The notes under the pieces are model-generated. The model saw nothing but the letters and a program-made list of their open reading frames with translations. It made no database searches and was not told the DNA's origin. 51,289 nucleotides of DNA from an uncultured Burkholderiales bacterium (lineage in GTDB: Bacteria > Vulcanimicrobiota > Xenobia > Xenobiales > QWHO01), in NCBI GenBank assembly GCA_964637145.1, contig CAZWUN010000005.1, forward strand, positions 1 through 51,289, read 5' to 3'. The first letter of the stretch is position 1. Each line of letters starts with the position of its first letter. Shown piece by piece: positions 16,346-40,474 of this stretch. The position numbers and the translations under genes are program-made.

Positions 16346-16386
16346 GACCGCGCCGGGTTCGACGCGGGCCGTGCGATTCCGCCTCG

Positions 16387-16989: not shown

Positions 16990-17723
16990 TATACCCGGTA
17001 GTGGTAGGTCTTGCCTGGCTCGCGTTCACAGTCCTGGGGATAGCTCTTGCGCTTGGCGGCGAAGTACTCCTCGCGCCGGTCCCCCTCGCGCCTCAGGCCG
17101 TAGGTGATGTAGAGGATTCGCCGGGCCTGGGTGCTGTCATTGGGTCCCGATCGGTGGGGCACGAACGAGTCGAAGAACGTGGTGTCGCCTGGTGCCGCTT
17201 CCAGGGATTGAAAGCGAAGCCCCAATTCTCCCAGGGGCTCGTGCATCGGACCGAGCAATCCTTCGCGGTGGCGGCCCGGGACGACTTCCAGGCACCCATT
17301 GTCCCGCGTGGCCCGGTCGATGGCCACCATGGCCGTCAGGTGGATGGAGCCCCAGGCGTCCCAGCCGGCCTGCACATCCTGGTGAGCCGCAAAGCCATCT
17401 CCGCCGGGCAGCTTGAAGTTCAGCTTGTCTTTGAACAAGACCATGTCTTCACCCATGAGCTGCTCTGCGGTTTGGCGCAGCACCCCCGCGCAGAGATCGT
17501 GCAGGCCGGAGTGATAGGGAAGAAAATTCTCGGCCCGGCAGAGCAGGCGTCGGTCGGGATCGGCTCGATGGGGTTCGTAATAGAGCATCCACTTGCCCGG
17601 GGTCTCGGGCCAGCTCTCCAAATCGCAGACCCATTCTCGCAGAGGCGCGGCGGGCAGAAAGCCCGGCAGGTGGAGGTAGCCGTCCTGTCGGTATCGCTCC
17701 ACTTGCTCAGGTGTCAGGTTCAC
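16989..17723 (-). CDS. PhyH-family Fe(II)/2-oxoglutarate dioxygenase
   Basis: YRQDGYLHLPGFL N-terminal motif. HxD in FAAHQDVQ and distal His in FVPHRSGPN. Start set at in-frame GTG 17723 (VNLTPEQ...), because the upstream codons of the ORF overlap the PAP2 gene in another frame. Confidence 0.8.
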   Translation of the reverse strand: MNLTPEQVERYRQDGYLHLPGFLPAAPLREWVCDLESWPETPGKWMLYYEPHRADPDRRLLCRAENFLPYHSGLHDLCAGVLRQTAEQLMGEDMVLFKDKLNFKLPGGDGFAAHQDVQAGWDAWGSIHLTAMVAIDRATRDNGCLEVVPGRHREGLLGPMHEPLGELGLRFQSLEAAPGDTTFFDSFVPHRSGPNDSTQARRILYITYGLRREGDRREEYFAAKRKSYPQDCEREPGKTYHYRV

Positions 17724-18579: not shown

Positions 18580-18580
18580 C

Positions 18581-26838: not shown

Positions 26839-26913
26839 GAGCGGGTGGTTGGTCGGCAGGAGTTTGCCTTGAATGCCGAATCATGGAGCTGGATTTTTAT
26901 TCAAGGAGCTTCG

Positions 26914-28872
26914 ATGCGTTCAAGAACTAGCCTTTATTTGCTCGCTTTGCTCTTCCTGTTCGGCTGTTCCGGCGGGGGGTCGAGTTCTGTCGGTGGTGGC
27001 ATACCCGCCCCGCCTCCAGGCCCTCAGCTCGTGAGCATGAAAATTGATGTCGAGGTCCCTGAACAGGCCCAGAGGGCCATTCAGGGACGCTCGCAGATTC
27101 TCGAAGTGGTTGCCGAAGTGGTGGACCGCAACACTCCTGACCCGGGCGCCCTCAGCGGTCGAAGGATTGTCTCGCGTGGGTCGGCTTCGGTGGGCGAGGA
27201 AGACCGCACGGTCAGGATCCTGCTGGACATCATTCCAGGAATCTGGGACATCTACATCTTCGGGTTGGATGCTGAGGGAAAGGTCGTGGCGGTTTCCACC
27301 ATCGACCAACTGGCTATCACGCCGGGCGTGGTGCTCGAGCAGAAGGTAAATCTCCAGTTCCAGAGCCAGTCTGTCGTCGTCAATCCGCCTAACCAGACGA
27401 TCCTGGTCGGAGAGCAGCAGCAGTTTTCCGCGCTGGTTTTCTTGCCCAGCGGCACCAGCACCAGCGTGACCTGGATATCTGACGACCCGGCCATCGCCAG
27501 CGTCGATGCCAACGGATTGGCTACCGGTATGGCCCCGGGAACGACCAATATTCGCGCCATTTCCACGGTGGACAACTCGCTTCAAGGTTTTGCCCAGCTG
27601 ACCGTGCTGGCCGCAACGGTACAAAGTCTCGACCTGGTGTTCTCCGACGCCACCAATACTGTTCAGGTCGGGCAGGTCGGAACCAGCTTCTTGACGACGG
27701 CCAACTTGAGCAATGGTACAACCCAGGACGTGACCGGACAGGCCACCTACACAATCGGCGATCCCACGATCCTGGCGGTCGATTCGGCCGGGGTGGTGAC
27801 GGCCCTGGCGGCCGGAACCACCACCGTGCAGGCAAGTTTGCCTGGAGTCGCGGTACTCAGCAACATCGTAACCATCACCGTGCTTCCGAACCTTGCTCGC
27901 GTGGTGGTGGTGGAGTCGAATGGAGCCGCCAGCCAGTTGCACAGCTTCTCGATGGATCAGGCGACCGGTACTCTCACGCCGGTGGATACCCTGGGGTTGG
28001 GCGGCAACCCGAGCAGAATGGCTGCTGACCAGCTGAACAACCTCTTTTCCGTGATCGTGAGCGGAGTCATTTCGCCGTTCACAATCGATCCGGCGGGGAA
28101 CCTCACCGCTCTCACGCAACTGGGCCTGGCCGATGGGATCGACTTTCCCCAAGCCCTGGCTTGTGATAATCAGCGGCTCTATGTGTCGAACAATCCCGCC
28201 GCTGGGAACGACCCGGTCCTGACCTTCCTCTTCAACGGAACCCAGTACGCTCCGCTTGCAGGTGCCTTCCTGGTGCCCGACAACATTGTGACTTTGTTCG
28301 TCAGCCAGGCTATCAGTTCGCTCTATACTGGCTCGAACAACCCCATTCCGAACTTCCCTGTGGATCAGGTGAATCTGGACGCTTCCGGGGCACCTGTTAG
28401 CCTCGGAGGCCAGCTGCAGTTCACCAACACTCCCAGGCAGATTGCCTTGAGCGCAAACAATGACTTCGCGTTCGTGGCAACCTCGACCGGCTTGCACACT
28501 GTGGATATCGACGCGAACGGCACGTTGCTGGGAGTCGTCGACGCCCAACCCCCGACCTTTGCCAACCCGACGGGCATCGCGGTGCACCCGAACGGAAACT
28601 TCGTTTATCTCATGTCGACCGCAGGCAACAGCGCAATCGACGTGTTCGCCGTGGATGCCTCCGGGCTGTTGACGCCTGTTCAGACGTTGCCGATCGCCGA
28701 CCAGGTGTTTGATCTGGCGATCGATCCGAGTGGGGCCTTCCTGATTTTTCCGGGACTCGCGGGTGACCTCGTGGCCGTTCATTCCATCGACCCCGCCACT
28801 GGAAATGTAAGTCTTGCGCCGGTTACGACAGCGACGGTCAATGCTCCCTTCGTACTCGACCTGTTTCCCTGA
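26914..28872 (+). CDS. lipoprotein with Big_2 Ig-like domains and a C-terminal lactonase-type beta-propeller
   Basis: ATG 26914 is preceded by AAGGAG (26903-26908). Signal peptide plus lipobox LLFLFGC. Two Big_2-like units (e.g. ILVGEQQQFSALV...VTWISDDPAIASVDANGLATGMAPGTTNIRA). Repeated propeller blades (FVYLMS, AIDVFAVD, LIFPG) at the C-terminus. Confidence 0.8.
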   Translation: MRSRTSLYLLALLFLFGCSGGGSSSVGGGIPAPPPGPQLVSMKIDVEVPEQAQRAIQGRSQILEVVAEVVDRNTPDPGALSGRRIVSRGSASVGEEDRTVRILLDIIPGIWDIYIFGLDAEGKVVAVSTIDQLAITPGVVLEQKVNLQFQSQSVVVNPPNQTILVGEQQQFSALVFLPSGTSTSVTWISDDPAIASVDANGLATGMAPGTTNIRAISTVDNSLQGFAQLTVLAATVQSLDLVFSDATNTVQVGQVGTSFLTTANLSNGTTQDVTGQATYTIGDPTILAVDSAGVVTALAAGTTTVQASLPGVAVLSNIVTITVLPNLARVVVVESNGAASQLHSFSMDQATGTLTPVDTLGLGGNPSRMAADQLNNLFSVIVSGVISPFTIDPAGNLTALTQLGLADGIDFPQALACDNQRLYVSNNPAAGNDPVLTFLFNGTQYAPLAGAFLVPDNIVTLFVSQAISSLYTGSNNPIPNFPVDQVNLDASGAPVSLGGQLQFTNTPRQIALSANNDFAFVATSTGLHTVDIDANGTLLGVVDAQPPTFANPTGIAVHPNGNFVYLMSTAGNSAIDVFAVDASGLLTPVQTLPIADQVFDLAIDPSGAFLIFPGLAGDLVAVHSIDPATGNVSLAPVTTATVNAPFVLDLFP

Positions 28873-28897: not shown

Positions 28898-28931
28898 GTG
28901 GGGGGGGGGCACCCCCCCCCTTTTTTTTTTT
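28898..28931 (+). terminator. rho-independent terminator made of homopolymers (G10-CA-C9 hairpin followed by T11)
   Basis: Read directly: G run 28900-28909, c a, C run 28912-20, T run 28921-28931. It starts 26 nt after the lipoprotein stop and has an A-rich tract on the 5' side. Confidence 0.7.
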
Positions 28932-28995
28932 ATTGATGGCGAACAGACATTTTTAAGGGATTAAATCCTGATCTGACGTATTTGAGGGGAGTTCT

Positions 28996-30711
28996 ATGCT
29001 CTCCACATCCACCAGTGCCGAGTTCCGACTCGCCGCGGCCGCTGATCTGCCGGCCGAGCTGGCTCGACTGCCTGAAGGGGCCACCGCAGTTCTCTCCCCG
29101 GGTCGTTATGTTGTTGGGGAGCTGAGGCTCAAGCGCAGCCTGCGGTTGGTGGGCGCCGGGCTCGAGCGCACGGTACTTGAGGGCTCGCTGCGCGTCGAGC
29201 AGGGGCAGTTCGCCCTGCTCGACCTCACTCTGGGAAATCTCCAGGCTCTCGACTGCCAGCTCGAGGTCGAGCGCTGTCGTCTCCCAGGGATCGCTCTCGA
29301 GGGCGAGACCAGCGCTCGGGTGCGCTTTTGCCAGTGCGAAGGAGAAGAGGTTGGCATCCGGGTGGGCGGCACGGCTCGGGCCGAGCTAGAGGGCAATCGC
29401 TGTTGTCAATGCCCTCTCTACGGCATTCTTTTCCAGGATGAAAGCAGCGGGCGGGCCGTTCAGAACGACTGCTCGGGCAACCAGGTGGGTATCGGAGTTG
29501 CGGGCCAGGCCGTGCCCGAGCTCTTGGGCAATCACTGCAGCCAGAACGAGTCGGCCGGGATCGCCTACCATCAGGAGGGCGGTGGCTTGGCCCGCAATAA
29601 TGACTGCGAGGATAACGGCCATCACGGCATCTCCGTGGGCGGTCATGCGGCTCCCCGGTTGCAGGGCAACTCATGTTGTCATAACGGCTTCTGCGGGATC
29701 GACTATAGCGGCCAGGCCTCCGGCAGTGCCGAAAGCAATACCTGCTATGGCAACCAGGCCTACGGGATTCAGGTGGGCGAGGTTTCGGAGCCACGTTTGC
29801 TGGCCAATACTTGCTCTGAGAACGCCCAGGCCGGCCTGGCTTATTTCGGACAGGGGCAGGGGTCGGCCAGCCGAAATCAATGCACCCGCAACCAATTGCA
29901 CGGCATCCAGGTAGGCGAGGAGGCGGCTCCCGCTCTGCGGAGCAACATCTGCAGCCACAACCTGCTCTCCGGGCTGGCTTACTACGGCAAGAGCTGCGGC
30001 CAGGCCGGACACAACGAGCTGCACGACAACCAGTACCACGGCCTGCAGGTTTGCGAGCAGGCCCGCCCCGTGCTTTGCGACAATGTGTGCCGGGCCAACG
30101 CCAAGTCCGGGATCGCCTGTTTTGGCGAATCGCAGCCCGTGATGGTGCGCAATCACTGCTTGCAAAATCAGCTCCATGGCCTCTATGTGGGAGAAAAGGC
30201 CGTTCCGGTGGCCCATGCCAACCTGGCCCACGAAAACCAGGGCAACGGCCTGCTGTTCACCGAGGAGGCGGCTGGTCTGGTCACTCATAATCAGGCCGAT
30301 GCCAACGCTCGCCACGGGCTCTACCTGGGCCATCGGGCCACCCCCTTCGCGCGTGAGAACCTGTGTCGGCGTAACCTGCTTTCCGACGTTGTCACTCTGG
30401 GCGAGGTCGACCCGGTGGTCAGCGTGACCGCGGTGCGTCGCCATCGGCTGACCCTCGAGAGCGAGGGTGGCGCCTTCGAGCTGGCCCTTCCTTTTGAGCT
30501 GAAGCCCACCGAGCGGGCTGTGCTCGAGCACCTGGCCCGCTATGGCCGCATGAGCGAGGCGGCTCTGGGCAAGGCGGTCGGCACCCGGCGCATCGGGGGG
30601 CTGCTGGAAAGCCTGGTGGAGCGCCTGAATCGGGCTGGATTTCTGGCTCTGGGCCGCGAGGGGGACGGTCCGGAGGGCAATGTCTATGAGCTGAGGAGAG
30701 ACCGACTGTGA
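28996..30711 (+). CDS. cytoplasmic right-handed parallel beta-helix (PbH1/NosD-like) repeat protein with C-terminal wHTH-like domain
   Basis: No signal peptide. About 16 consecutive ~23-aa repeats of the form N-x-C-x2-N-x3-G-I-x-V (e.g. GNHCSQNESAGIAY, NNDCEDNGHHGISV, GNSCCHNGFCGIDY). The last ~100 aa (LKPTERAVLEHLARYGRMSEAALGKAVG...LVERLNRAGFLAL) look like a winged helix. GAGGGGAG ribosome site before the ATG. Confidence 0.85.
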   Translation: MLSTSTSAEFRLAAAADLPAELARLPEGATAVLSPGRYVVGELRLKRSLRLVGAGLERTVLEGSLRVEQGQFALLDLTLGNLQALDCQLEVERCRLPGIALEGETSARVRFCQCEGEEVGIRVGGTARAELEGNRCCQCPLYGILFQDESSGRAVQNDCSGNQVGIGVAGQAVPELLGNHCSQNESAGIAYHQEGGGLARNNDCEDNGHHGISVGGHAAPRLQGNSCCHNGFCGIDYSGQASGSAESNTCYGNQAYGIQVGEVSEPRLLANTCSENAQAGLAYFGQGQGSASRNQCTRNQLHGIQVGEEAAPALRSNICSHNLLSGLAYYGKSCGQAGHNELHDNQYHGLQVCEQARPVLCDNVCRANAKSGIACFGESQPVMVRNHCLQNQLHGLYVGEKAVPVAHANLAHENQGNGLLFTEEAAGLVTHNQADANARHGLYLGHRATPFARENLCRRNLLSDVVTLGEVDPVVSVTAVRRHRLTLESEGGAFELALPFELKPTERAVLEHLARYGRMSEAALGKAVGTRRIGGLLESLVERLNRAGFLALGREGDGPEGNVYELRRDRL

Positions 30712-32027
30712 ATCAAGCACCCCCGGCCCTCGATCGGGCCGTCGCCCTGGGAATCGTCAACGCCCTGCGCTCGGGAACCGTTCCCCCTGAAGGGCTCGAG
30801 CACTTCGCCGTAGGGCTGGACGCCCCCATGAAGGCCCTGTCCGAGCAAAGAGCCTACGTCAAGCAGGGCAAGAGCGCCTACAAGTTCATCCGGGGAAGCT
30901 ACGGCTCGGGAAAGACCTTCCTGACCAGCCTGGCCGGCGCGGAAGCCCTGCAGGACGGCTTTCTTACCAGCAAAGTGGTCATTTCGGTGGCGGACACGCC
31001 CATGTACCGGCTCAGCGAGGTCTACCGCCGCCTGTGTCAGAACCTGACCCTGCCGGGTCGACGCGGGGGAGCCCTGCAGAGCCTGCTCGACCGCTGGCTC
31101 TACAGCCTGGAGGAGCAGGTCATCGAAGTGGACGGGGTGGACGAGAACGCTCCCGAGTTCGAGGCCGCCGTGGGCCAGAAGGTGGAGCAGCACCTGGTGG
31201 CCGTGGGCCAGAGGGCGGGCCGGCTGGCGGCCTGTCTGAAGGCTTACCACGAGGCCAAATTCCGCCAGGACTTCGAGGAGGCCAGGGGCATTCTCGACTG
31301 GATGGCGGGGGAGGCCAAGGTGGGCGCGGCCATCAAGCGGGTGGCCGGAGTGACCGGACAGATCGACAACACGGATGCCCTGGTGTTTCTGCGCGGCTGG
31401 CTCGAGCTGGTGCGGGCCGCCGGCCATGCCGGCATTCTGGTCATTCTGGACGAGGTGGAGACAGTGCTGCGCCTGCGCCGTCCCGAGCGGCTCAAGAGCC
31501 TGGAGGTGCTGCGCCAGTTGGTGGATGCTCAAGACAACCAGGAGTTCCCCGGTCTGCATCTGCTCATTACCGGCACGCCTGACTTCTTTGAGAGCCCGCA
31601 AGGCGTGCTCGAGCTCGAGCCTCTGCACGAGCGCATCAAAGTGCTCAAAGCCGACGACCAGCACGAGAACCTTCGCCAGCCTCAAATCCCCCTGAGGCCT
31701 TTCGACACCGGGCGTCTCTTGCTGGCCGCCCGGCGCATTCGCGATCTGTATCCGGCCGATCATCCTGACCGCCTGAAGACCCGGGTGACCGACGACGTCT
31801 TCGAGGCCATGGTCGAGCGGGTCACCCGCGGCTTCGGCGGACGGGTCGAGGTGGTGCCTCGCCTCTTCCTGCGCGAGGTGGTCAATTTGCTCGACCTGGT
31901 GGACCAGCACGAGAGCTACGTTCCAGTGCGCGACTACAGCTTCGACGAGAGCGCGGTCAAGGCTCTGGCCCTGGCGCCCGAGGAAGAGGAGGCCCTCAGC
32001 GGCGCCGCGCGCGAAGTGCTGCTGTGA
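30708..32027 (+). CDS. BrxD-like (DUF2791-type) P-loop ATPase
   Basis: GTGA start/stop overlap with the upstream gene; GAGGAG 9 nt upstream. N-terminal GTVPPEGLEHFAVG, Walker A GSYGSGKT, Walker B ILVILDEVE, then LLITGTPDFFE and RLFLREVVNLLD. Overall layout as in BREX type 2 BrxD. Confidence 0.75.
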   Translation: MNQAPPALDRAVALGIVNALRSGTVPPEGLEHFAVGLDAPMKALSEQRAYVKQGKSAYKFIRGSYGSGKTFLTSLAGAEALQDGFLTSKVVISVADTPMYRLSEVYRRLCQNLTLPGRRGGALQSLLDRWLYSLEEQVIEVDGVDENAPEFEAAVGQKVEQHLVAVGQRAGRLAACLKAYHEAKFRQDFEEARGILDWMAGEAKVGAAIKRVAGVTGQIDNTDALVFLRGWLELVRAAGHAGILVILDEVETVLRLRRPERLKSLEVLRQLVDAQDNQEFPGLHLLITGTPDFFESPQGVLELEPLHERIKVLKADDQHENLRQPQIPLRPFDTGRLLLAARRIRDLYPADHPDRLKTRVTDDVFEAMVERVTRGFGGRVEVVPRLFLREVVNLLDLVDQHESYVPVRDYSFDESAVKALALAPEEEEALSGAAREVLL

Positions 32028-34126
32028 CCTCAGCGCCCACCAGCGCTTTCTTTCAGCTCTCCGAGCGGATGCGCCACGGCCTGGTGCACCGGCTGGGCTG
32101 GCGGTCCCTGCGTCCGGTGCAAGAGGTCAGCTTTCCTCCCATCCTGGCCGGTGAGAATGTGCTGGTGCTGGCCCCCACCGCCGGGGGCAAGACCGAGGCC
32201 GCTGTCCTGCCCGTGCTGGATCGGCTGGGACCCGGGCTGGGCGCCCTGTTTCTCTCGCCTCTGCGAGCCCTCTTGAACAACCAGGAGCCGCGCCTGAAGG
32301 AGCTGGCTTCCCTGGTTGGCCTCGAGGTCTTCAAGTGGCACGGGGACGTGTCGGCTCACCTCAAGAAGCGGGTGCAGGCCCAGCTCTTGATGATCACGCC
32401 CGAGTCGCTGGAGGTCATCCTGACTTCGGGCCGGGGCGAGATGCTGCGCGCTCTCTCTTGCGTCATCGTGGACGAGATCCACGCTTTCGCGGGGGACGAC
32501 CGGGGAGACCACCTGCTGTGCCTGCTCGAGCGCCTGCGCGCATACACTTCGCACGACTTTCAGCGCATCGGCCTGTCGGCCACGGTGGGCAACCCCGAGA
32601 CGCTGTGTGAGTGGTTGCAGGGCTCGAGCCAGCGCTCGCGCCGGGTCGTGTCGCCCGCTCGCGAGCCAGGTCGCCGCCTGATCGAGATCCACCCTCACGA
32701 GGAGTTCCAGGACCCGATTCGCACTGCGGCCCGCCTGGCCCGGGGCAAGAAGTCCCTTTTTTTCGCCGAGTCGCGGGGCAAGGTGGAGCGGGTTCGCGGC
32801 CAACTCCAGGAACTGGGGGTGCAGGCCCTGGTGCACCATTCGTCCCTGTCGCGCGAGGTGCGCGAGGCCACCGAGCTGGCCTTTCGCTCGAGCAGCAACT
32901 GCGCCATCGTGTGCACCCGCACTCTGGAGCTGGGACTGGACGTGGGCGACCTCGACCTCGTGCTGCAACTCGATGCTCCCACCACGGTCTCGGGCTTTCT
33001 GCAGCGACTGGGGCGCACCGGGCGACGTGACGGCGCCCGTGGTCACATGGCTTTTTGCACCGATGACCGTTGGAGCTTCCTCAGAGCCATTTCCCTGATC
33101 TCCCTGGCTGCCCGCGGGGCGGTCGAGCCGGTGCGCCCCTCGCGCTTCTCGCCCCACCTGTTCGTCCATCAGGTGTTGACCCGCGTGCTCGAGCATCGCG
33201 GGCTCTCGCGCTCGGCTCTGCTGGCCACCGAGGGCTACTGCTTCGCCGACCTGAGTAAGCCGCAGCGCGAGCGCATCCTCGATCACCTGCTCGAGAAGGA
33301 CATCCTGGCCCGGGCCGACGGGCGGTTGGTGGTGGGCCGCCAGGGCGAGAAAGAGTTTGGACGGGGGTACTTCCGCGAGCTCTATTCGGTTTTCGAGGCC
33401 CCCCGCGAACTGGCCGTGGAGACTCCCGATGGCAAGCGCATCGGGGCGGTGGAGTGCTGGTTCGCCCAGGTGAGCGGTGACAAGCCATTTTGTTTCCTGC
33501 TGGCGGGTCGCGCCTGGCGGGCCGTTGGTTGTCTCTGGGATCGCTCCGTGCTGCTCGTCGAGCCGGCCGGCCAGGGGGCCATTCCCTCTTGGAGCGGCGA
33601 TCTCTTACTGCTTCAGCGCGACCTCTGCCGCGAGATGCGGTCTCACCTGGTGGAGGAGGCGCCGGTTGGGTTTCTCTCCGACCTGGCCCAGGCTCTGCTC
33701 GACCGGCTGAGGTCGGAGTGGCGGCCGCTCCTGACTCACGCCCCGGTGATCCTGGAACGCCGGGGCGAGAAGGCAACCCTGTTCACCTTCGCCGGGGGGC
33801 GCATCAACAACGTCGTGGGAAGGCTTTATACCTATCGGACCGGGCTGGAGGCCCGGGCTGACAACCTGCGCGTGCGCTTCGAACTGCCCCCGGATGAGGT
33901 CTGGTCTCGGCCCATGGAGCGGGTGCTGGAGGAACTGGCCAGCCCGCTCTCGGGCGAAACCCTCCAGGCTCTGGTGAAAAGCATCCCCCGCTCGCGAGCC
34001 TCCAAATTCCAGCCCTTTCTACCGCCCGACCTGGAGGCCGCTTTCGTGGCCGGGCGATTGCTGGACCTGGAGGGAGCCATGAGTCTGGCAGGCGAAGACC
34101 TGGGGGTGGTGACGTGGGATGTCTGA
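32024..34126 (+). CDS. Lhr-like SF2 DEAD/DEAH helicase (BrxHI-like)
   Basis: GTGA overlap with the upstream gene. Motifs: Q-region LRPVQE, motif I APTAGGKTEAA, motif II VDEIH, motif III SAT, motif VI QRLGRTGRR. A ~300-aa C-terminal extension as in Lhr-core proteins. Confidence 0.9.
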   Translation: MTSAPTSAFFQLSERMRHGLVHRLGWRSLRPVQEVSFPPILAGENVLVLAPTAGGKTEAAVLPVLDRLGPGLGALFLSPLRALLNNQEPRLKELASLVGLEVFKWHGDVSAHLKKRVQAQLLMITPESLEVILTSGRGEMLRALSCVIVDEIHAFAGDDRGDHLLCLLERLRAYTSHDFQRIGLSATVGNPETLCEWLQGSSQRSRRVVSPAREPGRRLIEIHPHEEFQDPIRTAARLARGKKSLFFAESRGKVERVRGQLQELGVQALVHHSSLSREVREATELAFRSSSNCAIVCTRTLELGLDVGDLDLVLQLDAPTTVSGFLQRLGRTGRRDGARGHMAFCTDDRWSFLRAISLISLAARGAVEPVRPSRFSPHLFVHQVLTRVLEHRGLSRSALLATEGYCFADLSKPQRERILDHLLEKDILARADGRLVVGRQGEKEFGRGYFRELYSVFEAPRELAVETPDGKRIGAVECWFAQVSGDKPFCFLLAGRAWRAVGCLWDRSVLLVEPAGQGAIPSWSGDLLLLQRDLCREMRSHLVEEAPVGFLSDLAQALLDRLRSEWRPLLTHAPVILERRGEKATLFTFAGGRINNVVGRLYTYRTGLEARADNLRVRFELPPDEVWSRPMERVLEELASPLSGETLQALVKSIPRSRASKFQPFLPPDLEAAFVAGRLLDLEGAMSLAGEDLGVVTWDV

Positions 34127-34472
34127 GCCGAAAAAGTTTGCCCTGAGCGCTGAGGAGATCCGCCCTCTGGTCCCGGGACGGGGAGCCTGTTTTGCCAGCG
34201 ATCGAATCACCGTGGATGGCAGTCGAGTCAACTACTGTTACCGAGAAGAGCCTGATAACGAGGTGGACAGCGGCTGGAGGTTCTTGGCAGGGGATGAGAC
34301 GGATGCCTATATGCAGGAGGTTTCCAATCACGGTATTTACGACGTGAACACGATCGCCAACTACGACCCCGACATCATCAGCTTGCTCGATTCTCCCATC
34401 GGCTCTGAGTTTGCGCGGGATCGGGCCAGTGGGGACTTCAGGGCCCTACCGGGCAAACCTCCCACGCATTGA
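34119..34472 (+). CDS. DUF2185 / Imm33-like small protein
   Basis: The ATG overlaps the helicase stop (ATGTCTGA). CFASDRITVDG..VNYCYREEPDNEVDSGWRFLAGDETDAYM....YDVNTIANYDPDI matches the DSGW-containing DUF2185 pattern as I recall it. Confidence 0.6.
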   Translation: MSEPKKFALSAEEIRPLVPGRGACFASDRITVDGSRVNYCYREEPDNEVDSGWRFLAGDETDAYMQEVSNHGIYDVNTIANYDPDIISLLDSPIGSEFARDRASGDFRALPGKPPTH

Positions 34473-34479
34473 CATTGCG

Positions 34480-34974
34480 TTAAAGGAGCCGACCGAGCAG
34501 GGCGGGCTCGTCGGATGGCTTGTGGAAGATCGAGTCGACCTCCAGTACGCCGTAGGTATCGAAGGCCTTCACGTCGTTGGGCCGCCGGGCGCTGTAGAGG
34601 ATGCCTTCGATGTCTTGCTGCTGGAATTCGTCGAGCAGGCGCTCGGCCCGGTCACTGGTGCAAAAGTTCGGGTCGCAGCCCTCGAGAATGGTGTCCAATA
34701 GTTGCTTGCGATAGTCGCTCGGGGGGCGCTGGCTCAACAGCTCCAGGAAGTTCAAGCCGTTGATGCGTTCCTGCAGGTCGGCCAGATCGAGGTCGAAGTC
34801 CGAGACGATGGCTCGCAGACGCGAGAGCTTACCGTCTTCGTGGGCTGCCAGGAGCGTCTGCAACGCTTCGCACGGGCTATCCACGACCCGGCAGCGTAGC
34901 TTCTTCGAGCGCAAACGTAAGACGGCGCGCTCGATCAGTTCAGGCTCATTTTCTATCCACAGTACCCAGGCCAT
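34480..34974 (-). CDS. receiver (REC)-like domain protein with incomplete acidic pocket
   Basis: VLWIENEPELIE...ALQTLL...AIVSDFDL follows the beta-alpha layout of response-regulator receivers, but with EN in place of the DD pair. No output domain. Confidence 0.45.
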   Translation of the reverse strand: MAWVLWIENEPELIERAVLRLRSKKLRCRVVDSPCEALQTLLAAHEDGKLSRLRAIVSDFDLDLADLQERINGLNFLELLSQRPPSDYRKQLLDTILEGCDPNFCTSDRAERLLDEFQQQDIEGILYSARRPNDVKAFDTYGVLEVDSIFHKPSDEPALLGRLL

Positions 34975-35013
34975 GACTCCCCGGATATCTACACCTGCCC
35001 CGGATCTCCTGCT

Positions 35014-35505
35014 TCAGACGTTATGCTCGCTGCGGGCCGCTCGCCTCTGGTAGTCGATCTCGGTCAGGATTTCTTCGAACTTTGGGAAGAAGAACTGCTC
35101 AATTCGGGCGAACGAGGTGCCATCGCTGACGGTGGCCACCATGAAGCTGCCCTTTATCCGCTGGGGCTTGAGCAGAGTGACATTTCGCCAGCGGATGGCC
35201 AGCTCTTGCTTTCCATTCTCGTAAAGCAGGCAGTCGGGCCGGAGGGTAAAGCGCTTCCCGCGGTAGGCATTGAAGGCCAGAACGGGCATCAGAAGCAAGA
35301 GCAGGGACATTCCGATGGGGAGGTAGCCGGCCACGAACCGCAGACCGGGCTCATTCAATGCCTTGGGGATTCCGATGTTCAACTCGTAGAGCCCGGCGGC
35401 GATTCCCAGCAGGCTTACCACCACGGCTGCGATGGCAAAGGGCCAGAAGCGCTTCATGCTGGCTTGATAGACTTTAAATTGTGGCTCTTGCTTCTTGGGA
35501 GGCAC
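35014..35505 (-). CDS. membrane protein with two TM segments and a PH-like C-terminal region, function unknown
   Basis: Two hydrophobic helices (FWPFAIAAVVVSLLGIAAGLY; YLPIGMSLLLLLMPVLAF) followed by a soluble ~80-aa domain. G/C-rich third positions. Confidence 0.5.
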   Translation of the reverse strand: MPPKKQEPQFKVYQASMKRFWPFAIAAVVVSLLGIAAGLYELNIGIPKALNEPGLRFVAGYLPIGMSLLLLLMPVLAFNAYRGKRFTLRPDCLLYENGKQELAIRWRNVTLLKPQRIKGSFMVATVSDGTSFARIEQFFFPKFEEILTEIDYQRRAARSEHNV

Positions 35506-35613
35506 ACCCTCTCTTTCTTGGCAAAGCAGGGTCTTCCCTACCCTTAAAGGGAAACTGCGACAGGATTCGCCTCCTCAGACGAGAAAATTCCTCCAGGGAG
35601 GACTGGAGTGAGA

Positions 35614-36027
35614 ATGCAGGTTCGCCACCGGCGGGGGTTCACGCTGATCGAGCTCATGATCGTGCTGATGCTCTTCGTCATCCTGCTGACCTTGATGATG
35701 CCCAGCCTGATCAGGGCCCGCTATCGGGCCCAGTTGACCGCCTGCATGGATACCGTGAAGCACATCGCTACCGCTCTCGAGCAATATTCGGTAGACAATA
35801 AGGTCTACCCCAATGCTCTCGATCCCACCTTCACTCAGGCCTATCTCAGCCGCCCCAAGGTGGTCTGTCCAAGCTCGCAGCAAGATTATACCTACCAGGT
35901 CGACAACGTGGAGCATAGCTTCACCATTTACTGCGGGACCGGCATGCACGTAGTGGCCCTGCCGGGAGTGGTCCTCAACGGTTTCCCCCAGTTCTCACAT
36001 CATCTCGGCTCGGTCATGCTCAAGTAG
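35614..36027 (+). CDS. prepilin-type (type IV pilin / T2SS pseudopilin-like) protein
   Basis: Class III signal: RRG-FTLIELMIVLMLFVILL, with Gly at -1, Phe at +1 and Glu at +5. GGAG lies 6 nt upstream of ATG 35614. Confidence 0.8.
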   Translation: MQVRHRRGFTLIELMIVLMLFVILLTLMMPSLIRARYRAQLTACMDTVKHIATALEQYSVDNKVYPNALDPTFTQAYLSRPKVVCPSSQQDYTYQVDNVEHSFTIYCGTGMHVVALPGVVLNGFPQFSHHLGSVMLK

Positions 36028-36112
36028 AACTGTTCACGCCGTTTTCACAAAAGTCAGGGCCGGCTCGCTTATGCTCCCGCCAGACGGACAGACAGCAAGC
36101 AGGAGGAACCCC

Positions 36113-36808
36113 GTGCAAACCGCAGCCCTGGCATTTCGGCCCGCTCTGGCGCTTGGAACCGCGGGCACGCAGACCTGGAAGAACGGTGTCGTGCACACCG
36201 ACGGCTCGGCCGATGTGTACGAGCTTCCCAGCCAGACTCCGGGCGTGCCCCGGCGCATCGAAGTTCGGCCTGTTCTGTGGGGGCTGTTGGGCAAGGAGGT
36301 GACGGCCACCGACTGTCAGGGCAAGCCGCTGCAGGCTACGCGGGACTGGAGTGGACTGGTGACCCGTGATCCGCGCTCGGGCTTGGAGACGGTGCTCGAC
36401 CCGAAGGCCCGGACGATCACTGTTTCAACTCCGATGGTGCGCGAGAAGCTCGAAGACAAGAATAACTTCCAGCGCGACAGCTATCATCGGGAGGCCCGTC
36501 AGGAGGTCGATGGCGAGGGCAACTGCCGCTATGTGAGCAATCTGCACGGTGAGAGCGAGGCTGTGATGATCTCCATGGTGCGCGAGATGCCTCCCAACCA
36601 GCGCTGCGTGACCCGCGACAGCAAGAGCTGGGAGGAGACCACGCTGGCTCCGGGGCAAGCGCCGGAGACCCGGAGGCTGAGCTCGGAGCAGCACACCGGA
36701 CCTCGCCAGGAAGCGACCCTCTCCAGCTCGCTCTCACTCGATGGCAAGCTGGTCGTGGTGGGCGACGACGGAGTTACCCGAACCTACGAGATGTTTCTGA
36801 AGGTCTGA
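36113..36808 (+). CDS. hypothetical protein
   Basis: GTG 36113 is preceded by AGGAGG (36101-36106). Good third-position G/C bias. No family recognised. Confidence 0.5.
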   Translation: MQTAALAFRPALALGTAGTQTWKNGVVHTDGSADVYELPSQTPGVPRRIEVRPVLWGLLGKEVTATDCQGKPLQATRDWSGLVTRDPRSGLETVLDPKARTITVSTPMVREKLEDKNNFQRDSYHREARQEVDGEGNCRYVSNLHGESEAVMISMVREMPPNQRCVTRDSKSWEETTLAPGQAPETRRLSSEQHTGPRQEATLSSSLSLDGKLVVVGDDGVTRTYEMFLKV

Positions 36809-36812
36809 AGCC

Positions 36813-37442
36813 ATGGCAGTGCTCACTCTGATCGCGACCTGTCTGGGAATTTTCCTTTCCATCTTGAATCTGATCGTCTTCCTGCGCGAGAAAGACCGAA
36901 GCTACCTCAAGCTGGCCCTGTCGGTGGTCTTCCTGGGTGGCGCGCTGGTGACCTGTTTGACCCTGCCCGGATTTGCGCCCGATCTGGCCCGGCGCTTCGC
37001 CCGGGAGCTCCCCGACCACCATCTGGTGCGCCTCTGGCTCTCCCAGGCTGGCTCCAGTGAGCAGCCGGGCTCGGCCGTTCCCTTGCGCGGATCCTTCACG
37101 CCGGAGTTGCAGCACAATCTGTTCGGGGGAATCTCAGGGCTCAAGCTCAAGTTTCAGTTTGTCTCCTTGCATCCGGTTCGGGCCCGGGTGCTGGGCTATC
37201 GACTGCGGATCGAGCCCGAGCAGGGTCAGGGGGAGCAGAGCTATGAGCGTCTCCTGTCGGAGCCTCTGGTGATCGAGCCGCACGAAACAGGCCTGGCCGA
37301 AGTGGAAGTGGACCGAGAGATTCTGGAAGCCTACTTTCGCCGAATGGACGCGGCCCATCCCGGGAGGATCTCCATCACCTGGCAGGCGGCCGACGAGCGG
37401 GGTCAGAGTTTCGACTGTTCTGCCGAGGGAGGCACGACCTGA
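36813..37442 (+). CDS. hypothetical membrane protein
   Basis: Starts 4 nt after the previous stop. Two N-terminal TM helices (LTLIATCLGIFLSILNLIVFL; LALSVVFLGGALVTCLTL) and a soluble C-terminal domain. Confidence 0.5.
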   Translation: MAVLTLIATCLGIFLSILNLIVFLREKDRSYLKLALSVVFLGGALVTCLTLPGFAPDLARRFARELPDHHLVRLWLSQAGSSEQPGSAVPLRGSFTPELQHNLFGGISGLKLKFQFVSLHPVRARVLGYRLRIEPEQGQGEQSYERLLSEPLVIEPHETGLAEVEVDREILEAYFRRMDAAHPGRISITWQAADERGQSFDCSAEGGTT

Positions 37443-37443
37443 C

Positions 37444-37959
37444 TCAGACGTTGAGTTGCTCCATGTAGACCATCCGCTTGCGCTGCTCGCGAACCAGGCC
37501 CCAGATCGTCTCCTTCATCTTTTCCGGGTAGGGGATTCCCCGCACGGCAAGGTCGGGCTCGGTCTTGTCGGTACTGATGAGATGCAGATCGCCCACCTTG
37601 AAGAGCCGATTCCAGAAAGTCTGGTTGAAGTTGATGTCCTCGACCCTGACCAGCTTGAGGTCTTCGGAGCTGCGGCCGAAGACGCCTGAGGTTACCGTCA
37701 AGCGCTCGCTGGTCAGTCGATAGTGCCGATTGGCCTTGCGATACCAGGCTACTCCGAGAAAGATCAAAATCGGGACCAACAACAGGAACCCCAGGAACCA
37801 CCAGAGGTTCAAGAGCGAGCTGGCGGCGCAGGTTCCCTCCCAGACGAGTCGCTCGGGCTCATCCGTGGGAGTCGGAGCGTGAGCCTGCATCGACTTGCCG
37901 CAATGATTGCAGAACTGTGAGCCGTCGGGATTGTCCTTGAGACAGGCCGGGCAGTTCAA
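37444..37959 (-). CDS. zinc-ribbon plus bPH_2 (YdbS/YdbT-like PH domain) membrane protein
   Basis: A TTG at 37959 gives the classic MNCPACL...FCNHCG zinc ribbon at the N-terminus. It is followed by a TM hairpin, then HYRLTSERLTVTSGVFGRSSEDLKLVRVEDINFNQTFWNRLFKVGDLHL, the bPH_2 signature. The ORF-track start 38007 would overlap the upstream gene by 47 nt. Confidence 0.7.
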   Translation of the reverse strand: MNCPACLKDNPDGSQFCNHCGKSMQAHAPTPTDEPERLVWEGTCAASSLLNLWWFLGFLLLVPILIFLGVAWYRKANRHYRLTSERLTVTSGVFGRSSEDLKLVRVEDINFNQTFWNRLFKVGDLHLISTDKTEPDLAVRGIPYPEKMKETIWGLVREQRKRMVYMEQLNV

Positions 37960-37960
37960 G

Positions 37961-40474
37961 CTAGCTTCCCATGCTGCGCCACTGGTCGATCCAGTTCTGC
38001 AGCCCATCGATCACGGCCGGGTTGGCGTTCAGGAGGGCCCGATAGAGATCCTGGCCCGATTGGAGCATGGGCTCGAGGTTGGGGTAGGTCTTGCACGCCT
38101 CCTCCAGCACTCCGAGCGAATAGTAGAGCTCTTCCGCCAGCGGCTCGGCGTGGGCCCGACTGGGCTGGCGCCGAAGTCGGTCGAGCTTCTGCTCGACCCC
38201 GTCGAGTCGCTCCAGGAACTGTTGGCGAAGGTTCTTCGGCTCGGGCGCACCGGCGACCGTGGTGCGCCCCGGCACGTGCCCCACGGCCGCTGCCTCGGCT
38301 CCAAAGGTCCAGACGGACTCAAAGGCGGGATCGATCTCACCGGTGACGCGGGTCATGCTGTCGTCCTGGATCAGGCGGCGGACCTCAGGGGTCTCCTTGT
38401 TGATGGTCTCGAGCTTGTCCTTGTGCTTGTCCCGGATCTTGGCGGCCTGCTCGCCTTCGATCTTAGCTCGATCGCTTCCGGGAGGTTTCTGGCGGGTAAA
38501 CTGGGCCTTGGCTCCCTCGGCAATCTTCTTGCCGCCCCCCTGGTATTTGGCCGTCAAACGATTGGAGGTATTGACCCCGGTCTTGGCGGTCAGACCCCGG
38601 TCCTTGCGGACCTCTGGGGATTTGGGCGCCGGGGGAGCCGGAGCGGGTTCGGCCGGGGGCTTTTGCTCGAGCGGCGGCAGTGGCGGAAGTTTGGAGGATG
38701 ATGTTTCAACGACTGGCTGTGGGGGCTGCTGCTTGGGAGGCGGAGGCGGAGGCGTCGGGGGCAGGGACGGCGCGACGGTCGCGGCGCCGGCCTCGGCCAG
38801 CACATGAAGGTGGGCCACGTTCTGCAGATCGAGCAGAACCAGGGCGGTGGCCTGGCTGAGAATGCCGCTCTGGATCGAGAGCTCGCTGATTTCCTGTGTC
38901 AGTGGCGCCTGGTCGGATGGACCGGCCAAGGCGCGCTGTTCTTCCAGGCAAGCCATTCGCAGGCTGGCCCAACCGGCGGCCAGAGCCGGGTTCTTGCTGG
39001 GAAAAGGAGCGATCTTGGCGGTGCGGACCGCGGTTTCGTGCGGGAGTTTGAGCTGCAAAGCCAGGGCACCCTGGCCCGTTTTGCGGCCTGCCGCCGAAAC
39101 CGGTCGCTGGGCCAGGAGGTCGCTCAGATGGGTCGGAACCAGAGAGTCGGGCACAAGACCCAGCCCCTGGTCCTGGAGTTCGAGTTCGAAGGCCACCGGT
39201 TGGCGAAGACTGCCGATGATCCGCTCGACCCCCTCCTTGAGTTGATCGGCTTGGACCTGGAAGGCATGACCGCGGCACTGATCGGAGAGTCGACTCAAGA
39301 CGACCTGGTTTTCGCCTGAAAGGCTGAAAGCATAGAGCCGGCCGGGGAGAGGACGAGTCCGGGCGGCTTTGATGAGTTCGCCACCCTGGGGCAGGCTCGA
39401 ACCGGTGATGAGCACGAGCCAGAGGGTGCGGCCCGTTCCCGGCACCGCCCGCAGTTGGTCGAGAACCTTGGGCAGATCGGCTGTCCCGGCTGGAGCCAGG
39501 GTCTTCAGCCACTCAAGCGCGGCCGGACGCTCGGCCGGTCCGGTCAGGCGCCCCCCGGATGGCCCGGCAAGTTGCTCGTTGTAGGCCCAGATCGCGAACC
39601 GGTCGCGTTCACCCAGCATTCCCAGGGCCTGGGTCAGGGCCGCGCGAGCACCCTCGAGGTTGGCCCCGGCCATCGCCTGAGAGCGGTCGAGCAGGAACAC
39701 CACGTCCACCCCGGCCGGGCTGGGGACCGTATTCTTGGGGGGCAGAATTCCGACATGGAAGTGCTGGTCGCCGGCAAAGAGTTGAACTCTGGGCTGCTCG
39801 GCCCCAAGCCGGAACCGGAGGGTGAAATCGCGAGGCTTCAGCTCCGCCGGGCGGGCCAGTTCGATGCGCAGATCCCCCCTCTGGCTCGATTGCGTGGCGG
39901 TGGGCTGGCTGGCTGCCAGCCGGGCCGGTGGCACCCCGGCTGTTTCGAGCACGGTCACCATCTGGAAATTGGCCGGCACGCTCCCAGCCTGGTCCAGCAT
40001 AGGAAAATGGAACACCAGGTCGCCACCGGCTTGCGGCTCGAGGGTCTCGACATAGGCCAGGTTGATGGCTACCTCGGAACCGGGGGGCACGGCTCCGAGA
40101 CTGATCTGAAGGGTATCGATCGATTGCTGGGTGAGGGTGGCTGGTTGGCCCTTGGCCAGCACGGCTTGATAGGCTTGCATGGCCCGCGCCCGGTCCTGCA
40201 GCCGCCCTTCCAGGACTTTACCCGCAACCTGAGCCCGAAAACGACTGAGCCTGGCACCGGGGGGGAAGGCGAGCTGGTAGGTCAGCGGAGCTGTTCCGGA
40301 CCCGGCGGTATAGCGCGCCGTGCTCTCCACCCAGGCAAGCGTTCCAGAGATCCAGACTCGAACGGATGCGTCCAAAAGCTGACCGCCCGAGAGCATGCCA
40401 GGGCCAAGACCCCGCGAAATCGAGGGGCACTCGGCATCGCCAAGTAGCTCCAGGGCCCGGGCAGCTGCCTCCAT
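37961..40474 (-). CDS. VIT plus von Willebrand A domain protein with Pro-rich linker and helical C-terminal region
   Basis: N-terminal VIT-like region (VRVWISGTLAWVESTARY...FRAQVAGKVLEGRL...). vWA with VDVVFLLDRSQAM (MIDAS-like DxSxA) and RFAIWAYN. A PPTPPPPPPKQQPPQP linker. The ATG shares one base with the upstream stop. Confidence 0.85.
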   Translation of the reverse strand: MEAAARALELLGDAECPSISRGLGPGMLSGGQLLDASVRVWISGTLAWVESTARYTAGSGTAPLTYQLAFPPGARLSRFRAQVAGKVLEGRLQDRARAMQAYQAVLAKGQPATLTQQSIDTLQISLGAVPPGSEVAINLAYVETLEPQAGGDLVFHFPMLDQAGSVPANFQMVTVLETAGVPPARLAASQPTATQSSQRGDLRIELARPAELKPRDFTLRFRLGAEQPRVQLFAGDQHFHVGILPPKNTVPSPAGVDVVFLLDRSQAMAGANLEGARAALTQALGMLGERDRFAIWAYNEQLAGPSGGRLTGPAERPAALEWLKTLAPAGTADLPKVLDQLRAVPGTGRTLWLVLITGSSLPQGGELIKAARTRPLPGRLYAFSLSGENQVVLSRLSDQCRGHAFQVQADQLKEGVERIIGSLRQPVAFELELQDQGLGLVPDSLVPTHLSDLLAQRPVSAAGRKTGQGALALQLKLPHETAVRTAKIAPFPSKNPALAAGWASLRMACLEEQRALAGPSDQAPLTQEISELSIQSGILSQATALVLLDLQNVAHLHVLAEAGAATVAPSLPPTPPPPPPKQQPPQPVVETSSSKLPPLPPLEQKPPAEPAPAPPAPKSPEVRKDRGLTAKTGVNTSNRLTAKYQGGGKKIAEGAKAQFTRQKPPGSDRAKIEGEQAAKIRDKHKDKLETINKETPEVRRLIQDDSMTRVTGEIDPAFESVWTFGAEAAAVGHVPGRTTVAGAPEPKNLRQQFLERLDGVEQKLDRLRRQPSRAHAEPLAEELYYSLGVLEEACKTYPNLEPMLQSGQDLYRALLNANPAVIDGLQNWIDQWRSMGS

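Follow-up and report, generated by a model that had tools for sequence, protein, structure and literature searches.

The cassette at positions 28996-34472 of the window (the whole stretch of 51,289 nucleotides analysed here, from an uncultured Eremiobacterota bacterium) is probably a module of three genes that stands alone and goes back to the PglZ-BrxD-BrxHI block of type-2 BREX (Pgl), and in which the products of genes 1 to 3 would act as one complex; we assign a probability of about 0.6 to this reading. Derivation from the PglZ-BrxD-BrxHI sub-module by exchange of the head is suggested because the first gene ends in the winged helix (wHTH) of PglZ and its BrxD nests with PglZ-linked BrxDs. 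The same two features speak against the new kind of defence system that had been proposed by the sequence-only reading, although the combination of a beta-helix protein with BrxD and BrxHI was not described in the literature searched. A role in defence is suggested by homology only.

Gene organization and flanking regions

The cassette and its upstream region contain the following features:

28900-28932, + strand: intrinsic terminator behind the upstream gene (G10-CA-C9 hairpin and subsequent T12)
28933-28995, + strand: AT-rich spacer and presumed promoter region, as judged from the sequence
28984-28991, + strand: ribosome-binding site GAGGGGAG ahead of gene 1, as judged from the sequence
28996-30711, + strand: gene 1, beta-helix/wHTH protein of 571 aa (ORF; Pfam Beta_helix)
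30442-30708, + strand: C-terminal domain (CTD) of gene 1, aa 483-571, a winged-helix domain (sequence identity, AlphaFold2)
30708-32027, + strand: gene 2, BrxD, a DUF2791 ORC/Cdc6-like AAA+ ATPase of 439 aa (PADLOC, NCBIfam, motifs)
32024-34126, + strand: gene 3, BrxHI, an Lhr/Ski2-like SF2 helicase of 700 aa (PADLOC, Pfam, motifs)
34119-34472, + strand: gene 4, Imm33/DUF2185 protein of 117 aa, end of the operon (Pfam Imm33)

The arrangement as four overlapping genes on the same strand, claimed before from the sequence, is confirmed by the ORF coordinates: the stop codons of gene 1 and BrxD each overlap the following start by 4 nt (GTGA), and the BrxHI stop overlaps the Imm33 start by 8 nt (ATGTCTGA). 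The terminator, the AT-rich spacer and the short distance to a convergent gene are likewise present in the sequence. The terminator lies directly 3' of the upstream + strand gene, is the top terminator-like site with nine G-C pairs and a T-run, and insulates the cassette from read-through, while the convergent ORF 34480-34974 has its stop codon only 7 nt beyond gene 4. Since the spacer (28933-28995) contains no match to the sigma-70 consensus, a promoter in this region is only presumed.

The surroundings do not resemble a defence island, for which the locus was checked: the neighbours identified by Pfam scans are housekeeping genes instead, coding for an esterase, a secreted Ig-like protein, pilin-like proteins and envelope proteins. 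Housekeeping neighbourhoods are also found at the related loci L001, L002, L028 and L029, and no defence genes or mobile elements adjoin the cassette in this small sample including the window; only the related CTD forms in L015, L017 and L020 adjoin HNH, Uma2, NERD, toxin or restriction genes. The cassette locus is syntenic across five to six Eremiobacterota MAGs. A related population carries the same downstream flanking gene (89% identity) with different flanks and without the cassette at that site, and these differing flanks show a rearrangement rather than a clean presence/absence polymorphism.

The beta-helix protein and its PglZ-type winged helix

The identification of gene 1 as coding for a beta-helix protein ending in a wHTH-like domain holds, as indicated by the match to Pfam Beta_helix (1.5e-41) and by an AlphaFold2 model with a pLDDT of 90, in which a regular right-handed parallel beta-helix (aa 9-467) is followed by a flexible linker (aa 470-482) and by a hairpin plus three-stranded wHTH (aa 483-566). 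Beginning at about aa 179, 23-residue coils bearing an Asn/Cys ladder follow one another until the helix ends, uninterrupted by loops. The sequence shows no signal peptide, and from it the product is judged to be cytoplasmic. Beta-helix proteins of the CASH/NosD/AlgG type share the fold, the 23-residue PbH1 repeat and the Asn/Cys ladder with gene 1 (Pfam Beta_helix, NosD), whereas gene 1 lacks their signal peptide, inserted loops and catalytic groove, and instead carries a fused wHTH and occurs together with an ATPase-helicase pair. A function as lyase or epimerase was rejected as the primary reading in view of the loop-free coils, the generic beta-helix folds retrieved by Foldseek (AlgE4, AlgG and PL6 lyases, TM <=0.58) and NCBIfam scores far below the cut-offs (NosD, 40 bits against 300; AlgG, 30 against 700).

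When the window was searched by tblastn with the PglZ protein of L020, the sole match was located at 30433-30708 (52% identity, 6e-19) and corresponded to the last 92 aa of that protein; with two type-2 PglZ proteins as queries, only this 92-aa CTD was matched. The CTD also shows identities of 56% (L006) and 43% (L008) to PglZ-like genes located directly upstream of BrxD. Type-2 PglZ proteins are described to end in a three-stranded wHTH (PMC12839542). Modelled alone by AlphaFold2, the CTD reaches a pLDDT of 95; its fold is that of a generic winged helix without a significant match in the PDB, and the recognition helix lacks basic character. Except in the closest comparisons, no other part of the gene 1 protein is as well conserved as the CTD, which presumably serves as an adaptor, either for coupling to BrxD or for contacting DNA.

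A search with the CTD retrieved 62 clusters among 1.8 billion representative proteins, with the domain in C-terminal position in all except two weak matches. One CTD protein, P0075, matched the model of the Shango protein SngA at E = 0.005. A beta-helix head is found in the window and in L001, L002, L004, L005, L007, L009, L012-L014 and L027-L029, while the CTD also ends proteins with TPR (L010, L011), P-loop (L017) or unknown heads (L015, L016) and the PglZ proteins of L006, L008 and L020. Wherever a locus extended past the CTD gene, a BrxD gene either adjoined it or lay no more than three small genes away; the two genes share 4-14 nt in the window, L001, L009, L010 and L027. The order in L020 is PglY-PglZ-(three small genes)-BrxD-BrxHI; genes for a PemK toxin and a restriction enzyme of the BsaWI type adjoin this block.

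A relationship of the CTD to the TerB-C end of SngA was considered and dropped as not supported. Profile alignment by hhalign gave probabilities of 0.7% against Klebsiella SngA, a weak test in view of the low diversity of the SngA alignment, and 1.2% against TerB-C, and Pfam TerB_C versus the CTD was not significant (E = 0.22).

The ATPase-helicase pair and its relatives

Gene 2 matches the PADLOC model of BrxD with 471 bits (1.3e-141) and the NCBIfam model BREX_BrxD with 467 bits (equivalog cut-off, 350), and its Walker A (GSYGSGKT, aa 63-70) and Walker B (LVILDE, aa 244-249) motifs are intact. Gene 3 matches BrxHI over the full PADLOC model (685 bits, 2.2e-206) as well as Pfam DEAD and Helicase_C, with intact motifs I (APTAGGKT), II (DEIH, aa 150), III (SAT) and VI (QRLGRTGR). 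The second-best PADLOC matches are the Shango proteins SngB (153 bits, 2.4e-45) and SngC (431 bits, 3.8e-129), respectively. The recognition of the pair as BrxD/BrxHI of type-2 BREX with kinship to Shango was therefore correct; as a check for an already named system, PADLOC thus recovers Brx models for genes 2 and 3, while none of its models matches the beta-helix protein. In a neighbour-joining sketch without support values, the beta-helix-linked BrxDs nest among the PglZ-linked ones, with the Aulosira BREX-2 BrxD and Shango SngB outside of this cluster. As judged from their sequences, genes 2 and 3 are homologous to SngB and SngC but seem to belong to the BrxD/BrxHI clade. BrxD and BrxHI occur in about 90% of type-2 BREX loci and are described as system-specific, their role being not known (PMC12839542).

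The trio of beta-helix gene, BrxD and BrxHI is present as a unit in L001, L005, L014, L028 and L029, which bears out the co-occurrence that had been put up for checking, and it is conserved in unrelated neighbourhoods (L001, L014, L028, L029) down to a gene 1 identity of 34-42%. BrxD is the most conserved gene, with 92% identity to L005 and 69-73% to L001, L002 and L014; the identities of BrxD (69-73%) and the CTD (47-58%) exceed those of the beta-helix (35-46%) and the helicase (44-49%). All genes of the cassette are under purifying selection (dN/dS 0.04-0.23). All close relatives encode the helicase, but the divergent group with beta-helix heads (L009, L027) and the form with a TPR head (L010) do without it, so it is not obligatory for the function of the CTD-BrxD pair. 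Small genes following BrxD in L009 (139 aa) and L010 (179 aa) are mutually unrelated and without family match, and were not counted as components. Occurrence is rare and very patchy. Small counts were obtained from a metagenome scan with full-length alignment (three loci) and a genome scan with BrxD (five), and viral contigs contained no relatives of gene 1 or BrxD.

Lhr-family helicases act in DNA repair, and the cassette might accordingly be a housekeeping module for repair or replication restart, composed of an Lhr-type helicase and an AAA+ loader, rather than an immune system. This would agree with its syntenic location among core and envelope genes in the Eremiobacterota MAGs, the strong purifying selection without marks of mobile elements, the position of the CTD-BrxD pair next to MutS2/Smr in L009 and L027, and the best NCBIfam match of the helicase, a ligase-associated DEXH helicase. 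However, the latter match amounts to 225 bits with a cut-off of 850, compared to 685 bits for BrxHI, and the closest relatives of BrxD reside in BREX-2 loci. A housekeeping function also fits less well with so rare and patchy a gene set (only the 62 CTD clusters mentioned above), with the lack of the cassette next to the same flanking gene in the related population and with the exchange of PglZ, TPR, P-loop and beta-helix heads, as swappable heads are typical of conflict systems. We regard this explanation as unlikely.

The module shares with type-2 BREX the gene order, in which a wHTH-bearing gene precedes BrxD and BrxHI, as well as the C-terminal wHTH of PglZ (52% identity), a BrxD above the equivalog cut-off and a BrxHI matching the PADLOC model in full length. 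Only these features, i.e. the BrxD/BrxHI dyad and the three-stranded wHTH ending the gene upstream of BrxD, are present here. Unlike type-2 BREX, the module lacks the PglZ phosphodiesterase, PglX, PglY/BrxC and PglW, and contains a beta-helix in place of the effector body; therefore, self/non-self discrimination based on methylation is not possible. The absence of PglX, PglZ, PglY, PglW and TerB from the window, as noted before from the sequence, was corroborated by tblastn and by Pfam scans of 37 larger ORFs, with ORFs 7935-8645, 8611-10146, 11900-12775, 16989-20679 and 49962-51251 left out of the latter. Thus, neither Pfam nor PADLOC matched an alkaline-phosphatase/phosphodiesterase domain of PglZ in gene 1, and tblastn of the window with the PglY proteins of Aulosira and L020 yielded nothing for PglY/BrxC. 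Among the 37 scanned ORFs, there was no PglX-like N6-adenine methyltransferase or PglW-like protein, the only methyltransferase-type matches being a TrmB-like protein (Methyltransf_4) and a spermidine synthase. The sole kinase of the window (20717-21646) is a plain Ser/Thr kinase of 309 aa, and PglW proteins are 1400-1600 aa long (PMC12839542).

These data also bear on the view that the trio is an accessory module separated from a type-2 BREX system elsewhere in the genome and works only with distant PglX, PglY and PglW. The BrxD score above the equivalog cut-off and the PglZ origin of the CTD would fit, and BREX-2 loci can indeed be split by inserted genes, as seen in L020. We still consider such a dependence very unlikely, as no BREX genes were detected by tblastn and the above Pfam scans on either side of the cassette in the window (about 29 kb upstream, 17 kb downstream) or in the flanks of L001, L002, L014, L028 and L029, the trio recurs in unrelated neighbourhoods free of BREX genes, and the catalytic body of PglZ has been replaced and not merely moved.

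The Shango system, composed of SngA (TerB), SngB (ATPase) and SngC (helicase), follows the same grammar as the module, namely a variable first protein, a DUF2791-type ATPase and an Lhr-like helicase, and both are devoid of a nuclease. They differ in that the module lacks TerB (neither Pfam nor PADLOC gave a TerB match, and tblastn of the window with Klebsiella SngA found nothing) and in the low identities of its ATPase to Klebsiella SngB (24%) and of its helicase to SngC (29%). Moreover, the phage phenotype of Shango has been tested, whereas the module is known here from its genes alone.

The conserved unit and its possible function

Of the four-gene unit proposed initially, the trio stands as conserved, whereas the membership of gene 4 does not. 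Its assignment as an Imm33-like (DUF2185) protein is correct (Pfam Imm33, 2.6e-34), but the gene is confined to the window, L004, L007, L012 and L013, which represent five near-identical Xenobia-like genomes, and is missing from L001, L028, L029 and the syntenic Vulcanimicrobiota locus L005, where the same downstream gene directly follows BrxHI. Imm33 proteins have been described as immunity proteins for HNH-fold toxins and are common as orphan immunity genes (PMC3482391). Gene 4 is thus a lineage-specific passenger or add-on and not a conserved member of the system; the conserved unit consists of three genes, with the wHTH-bearing gene and BrxD as the tightest core. That Imm33 is a functional partner in a four-gene system, e.g. 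as an inhibitor of the module or a counter to a phage HNH nuclease, is highly improbable despite its overlap with BrxHI and its low dN/dS in the Xenobia clade (0.07-0.13), given this distribution, the frequent orphan status of the family and the lack of an HNH toxin in the window.

For the three-gene module, we propose the following mode of action. Gene 1 would have kept the last approximately 90 residues of a type-2 PglZ, consisting of a beta-hairpin and the three-stranded winged helix, while a long and regular cytoplasmic beta-helix would have taken the place of the phosphodiesterase body. The three genes are probably translationally coupled, and their products may form one physical complex, in which the winged helix would tether the beta-helix head to BrxD, as suggested by the strict gene linkage. 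This may occur by direct docking or by the winged helix contacting DNA in trans, as ORC/Cdc6-type ATPases normally carry a DNA-contacting winged helix themselves. BrxHI is an Lhr-family enzyme of expected 3'-5' polarity. From what is known of these families, BrxD would load it onto DNA or switch it on there, as also proposed in PMC12839542. The beta-helix probably represents a binding or sensing surface rather than an enzyme and would set the target specificity of the module. With no nuclease at hand, interference with foreign DNA, be it of phages or plasmids, would have to proceed by ATP-driven unwinding or stripping by the helicase; the nuclease-less Shango system is presumed to act in this way. 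Imm33 would be an orphan immunity gene appended to the operon in one lineage.

A more far-reaching reading, which we put forward only tentatively, regards the PglZ winged helix as a transferable adaptor through which different heads (PglZ phosphodiesterase, beta-helix, TPR, P-loop or unknown) can be attached to a BrxD engine with or without BrxHI. In that case, the trio would constitute a working immune system independent of methylation and a sister of Shango, with the cytoplasmic beta-helix as sensor. The target of this sensor might be a protein of the phage or, since the fold has carbohydrate-binding ancestors, phage DNA modified with sugars. To our knowledge, no role has been demonstrated for BrxD and BrxHI even in Pgl; if the adaptor reading is true, their first defined role there would be the physical coupling to the effector PglZ by way of the winged helix. 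The occurrence of this BrxD clade outside of BREX, the proximity of CTD and BrxD genes and the interchangeable head provide a testable hypothesis of how the Pgl effector is wired to the ATPase-helicase pair, and the locus offers a minimal three-gene system for studying BrxD and BrxHI in isolation from the methyltransferase machinery. Protection against phages by the trio would add a system that uses neither nuclease nor methylase and has an unusual cytoplasmic beta-helix as sensor; a lack of protection would instead exemplify the recruitment of BREX parts for non-immune DNA transactions.

Layout and identity of the genes

The window has a G+C content of about 64%, and its cassette region shares 93-96% protein identity with contigs of uncultured Eremiobacterota, the matches being Candidatus Xenobia BTUM01000007, 'Eremiobacteraeota' CAUJEN010000111, and two metagenome contigs. 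The region contains the following features:

28900-28932, terminator hairpin G10-CA-C9 with T12 tail, directly 3' of the upstream plus-strand gene
28996-30711, plus strand, ORF of gene 1, beta-helix/winged helix-turn-helix (wHTH) protein
30708-32027, plus strand, ORF of gene 2, BrxD
32024-34126, plus strand, ORF of gene 3, BrxHI
34119-34472, plus strand, ORF of gene 4, Imm33

As judged from the ORF coordinates, the four same-strand genes have overlapping stop and start codons, as the sequence-only reading had stated, and the terminator, the spacer and the distance to the convergent gene that it gave were likewise found. The upstream plus-strand gene stops at 28872, the terminator is followed by an AT-rich spacer and a ribosome-binding site (GAGGGGAG), and the cassette's last stop codon lies 7 bases from the stop of the convergent ORF. 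All four ORFs are rich in G+C at third codon positions, as real genes of the host genome are, and the observation is real and non-random. Note that the terminator is a near-pure homopolymer hairpin with a weaker terminator score also on the minus strand, and that such tracts are liable to slippage and assembly error.

The previous gene identifications proved right. Gene 1 matches Beta_helix/NosD (Pfam), gene 2 is a BrxD (PADLOC 1.3e-141; NCBIfam 467 bits versus an equivalog cut-off of 350), gene 3 is a BrxHI (PADLOC 2.2e-206, full model covered), and gene 4 belongs to Imm33 (Pfam 2.6e-34). The second-best PADLOC matches of genes 2 and 3 are the Shango proteins SngB and SngC, respectively. Walker A and B motifs are intact in gene 2, as are helicase motifs I, II (DEIH), III, and VI in gene 3. 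BrxD is known as an AAA+ ATPase of the ORC/Cdc6-like type that lacks its own DNA-binding domain, and BrxHI as a helicase of the Lhr/Ski2-like type (PMC12839542).

An AlphaFold2 model of the gene 1 product, built with eight homologues as input (mean pLDDT 90), consists of a right-handed beta-helix (residues 9-467), a low-confidence linker (residues 470-482), and a C-terminal domain (CTD, residues 483-566) comprising a beta-hairpin and a three-stranded wHTH. Between residues 179 and 432, the coil motif recurs with a period of exactly 23 residues in two alternating types, with an Asn/Cys ladder and zero insertions. Because these coils are uninterrupted, the protein lacks the loop-built groove used by beta-helix lyases and epimerases. 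Foldseek retrieved only generic beta-helix folds (top TM 0.58), and no signal peptide was visible on sequence inspection. The CTD alone, modelled with AlphaFold2 on 33 sequences, reached a pLDDT of 95 and resembles many winged helices, both DNA-binding (MarR, SaeR) and protein-binding (ESCRT-II, cullin WHB), with zero structural matches at E < 0.01.

A winged helix shared with type-2 PglZ

In two short contigs found via their BrxD genes (L006 and L008), the gene upstream of BrxD codes for a type-2 PglZ (PADLOC PDLC02565, 1e-115 and 2e-173) instead of a beta-helix protein, and the last ~90 residues of these PglZ proteins match the end of gene 1 with 56% and 43% identity, respectively. Among 1.84 billion representative proteins, a full HMMER search retrieved only 62 clusters carrying the CTD, which forms the C-terminal end of the protein in all except two weak matches. 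The heads preceding it include about 10 beta-helices, about 20 PglZ bodies, TPR repeats, one P-loop/STAND-like domain, and several domains of 350-480 aa with no family assigned, some of which still contain the PglZ region that immediately precedes the CTD. One PglZ carrier, P0024, is encoded in the order PglY-PglZ-(three small genes)-BrxD-BrxHI, adjoined by a PemK toxin and a restriction enzyme; its last 92 residues match window positions 30433-30708 (52% identity, 6e-19) and represent the only part of the tested BREX-2 core proteins with a tblastn match in the window. A recent survey describes the end of type-2 PglZ as a three-stranded wHTH, whereas type-1 PglZ carries a beta-sandwich there; it regards BrxD-BrxHI as a tightly linked, type-2 BREX-specific dyad, and beta-helix partners do not feature in it (PMC12839542).

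Wherever the DNA of a locus continued past the CTD-bearing gene, a BrxD gene was adjacent or at most three small genes away. It directly follows the beta-helix, TPR (L010, L011), and P0075 (L016) heads, except for two beta-helix loci (L028, L029) with two small genes in between; a Uma2 gene intervenes behind the P-loop head (L017), and P0044, with an unassigned head, is placed after BrxD-BrxHI (L015). Overlaps of 4-14 nt join the CTD gene to BrxD in the window and in L001, L009, L010, and L027. Not every form includes the helicase: L009 and L027, which make up a divergent beta-helix group (~26% identity to gene 1), and the TPR form of L010 have BrxD but lack BrxHI, so the CTD-BrxD pair can evidently work, or persist, without it. 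In a neighbour-joining tree without support values, the beta-helix-linked BrxDs sit among PglZ-linked ones (L006, L008, L020), with the BrxD of an Aulosira plasmid BREX-2 and Shango SngB outside this grouping.

The L015 module (3277-8117) stands alone in the order BrxD, BrxHI, and a 446-aa CTD protein, adjoined by HNH and Uma2 genes, and is another use of the module outside BREX. The two-gene pairs of the related metagenome contigs L009 (7802-10890) and L027 (8001-11134) occupy a conserved site beside MutS2/Smr. In L010 (8001-11103; GCA_041653075.1, JBAZFZ010000005.1), the BrxD behind the TPR-CTD protein is a distant one (37% identity), and the neighbours, Nre and an ATP-dependent DNA ligase, have an archaeal or candidate-phyla-like look. 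On the Aulosira laxa plasmid (AP018310.1; L019, 14685-17971), a second ATPase-helicase pair lies downstream of the type-2 BREX PglZ-BrxD-BrxHI block; it resembles the window's BrxD and BrxHI only distantly (22% and 30% identity). This pair could represent a Shango-like module added to BREX.

Conservation and genomic setting

Gene 1 has few full-length relatives (15 matches in 5.8 billion clusters; top identity 42%). The co-occurrence of the beta-helix gene with BrxD and BrxHI, which had been proposed as a check, was seen wherever the contig was long enough, namely in L001, L014, the syntenic Vulcanimicrobiota locus L005, and four Xenobia-like contigs, as well as in L028 and L029 with the two inserted genes; the contigs of L002 and L003 stop after BrxD and gene 1, respectively. 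Since the gene neighbourhoods of these loci are entirely different from one another, the trio moves as a unit. The conserved unit consists of three genes and not of the four originally envisaged: among the loci compared, Imm33 is confined to the Xenobia-like set, and in L005, whose downstream flank is syntenic, the next gene, 20 nt after BrxHI with no Imm33 between, is homologous to the convergent gene of the window. Imm33 genes are immunity genes against HNH-fold toxins and frequently orphans (PMC3482391), and the window's copy is treated here as a probable passenger. Identities to distant relatives amount to 69-73% for BrxD, 47-58% for the CTD, 44-49% for BrxHI, and 35-46% for the beta-helix, which makes BrxD and the CTD the best-conserved parts of the module. 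The dN/dS values are low (0.04-0.13 within the Xenobia set, 0.08-0.23 versus L005), indicating working genes, not remnants.

The defence-island setting that was to be checked is not seen at the window locus, which has housekeeping and envelope neighbours, is syntenic among close relatives, and shows neither mobile-element marks nor relatives in viral contigs in the searches made. These features would fit a housekeeping role in DNA transactions, a reading we consider a serious rival, though an unlikely one. The gene grammar of the cassette is the same as that of Shango, a tested nuclease-free system; a defence role of the cassette itself is putative.

In Pfam scans, 33 further larger ORFs of the window came out as housekeeping genes, including envelope, phosphonate/choline-decoration, and pilin-like ones, with no BREX or TerB genes among them, and tblastn with PglY and PglZ of two type-2 BREX loci and Klebsiella SngA gave no match except at 30433-30708, in agreement with the absence of such genes claimed before. 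A split BREX-2 with its partners elsewhere in the genome, of which the window spans only 51 kb, is quite improbable.

In a related population that shares the downstream gene (89% identity), the site is arranged differently, which shows rearrangement only. In its contigs (L022-L026), the convergent-gene homologue is flanked by bPH_2 and VIT/VWA genes, which in the window (34480-40474) lie 3 kb off in opposite orientation; a local inversion or rearrangement is present at the cassette boundary.

Other parts of the window also deserve mention. Just upstream of the cassette (26845-28872, plus strand), a hypervariable secreted Big_2/Ig-like and lactonase-propeller protein is encoded, which shows 44-61% identity between genomes next to a flanking esterase with 95-96%, and could be a surface protein subject to diversifying pressure. 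L004 and L012 contain an extra partial paralogue, the homologues and paralogues being located as follows:

L004, 4612-5367 and 6148-8166, Big_2/Ig-like protein homologue and paralogue
L012, 4213-4974 and 5853-7823, Big_2/Ig-like protein homologue and paralogue

An 825-aa ORF (22977-25454, minus strand), located where the window is richest in G+C (71%), is an unusual fusion of a YidD-like membrane-insertion-factor domain at the N-terminus and a peptidase domain of the clostripain (C11) type. The cluster at 1971-7895 and 13078-16989, encoding PEP phosphomutase-nucleotidyltransferase and aminotransferase-nucleotidyltransferase fusions, two LicD proteins, and an ABC exporter, suggests that a surface polymer is decorated with phosphonate or phosphocholine.

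A probable re-headed offshoot of type-2 BREX

Our preferred reading derives the cassette from the type-2 BREX PglZ-BrxD-BrxHI block, with the PglZ body replaced and the winged-helix adaptor kept. With the CTD common to type-2 PglZ, the undescribed system envisaged in the sequence-only reading becomes a re-headed offshoot of a known one and is not categorically new. The beta-helix would have taken over the position of that body, and, in view of the strict linkage, the retained winged helix may couple the head to BrxD. The module would most likely work on DNA as a head-adaptor-loader-helicase complex, in which the beta-helix would be the recognition surface and the helicase the effector. Homology of the CTD to the TerB-C end of SngA could not be shown in the comparisons made. 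Of the results, the PglZ-type winged helix, portable and always found with BrxD, is the most useful, as it makes the unexplained BrxD/BrxHI pair of Pgl accessible to testing.
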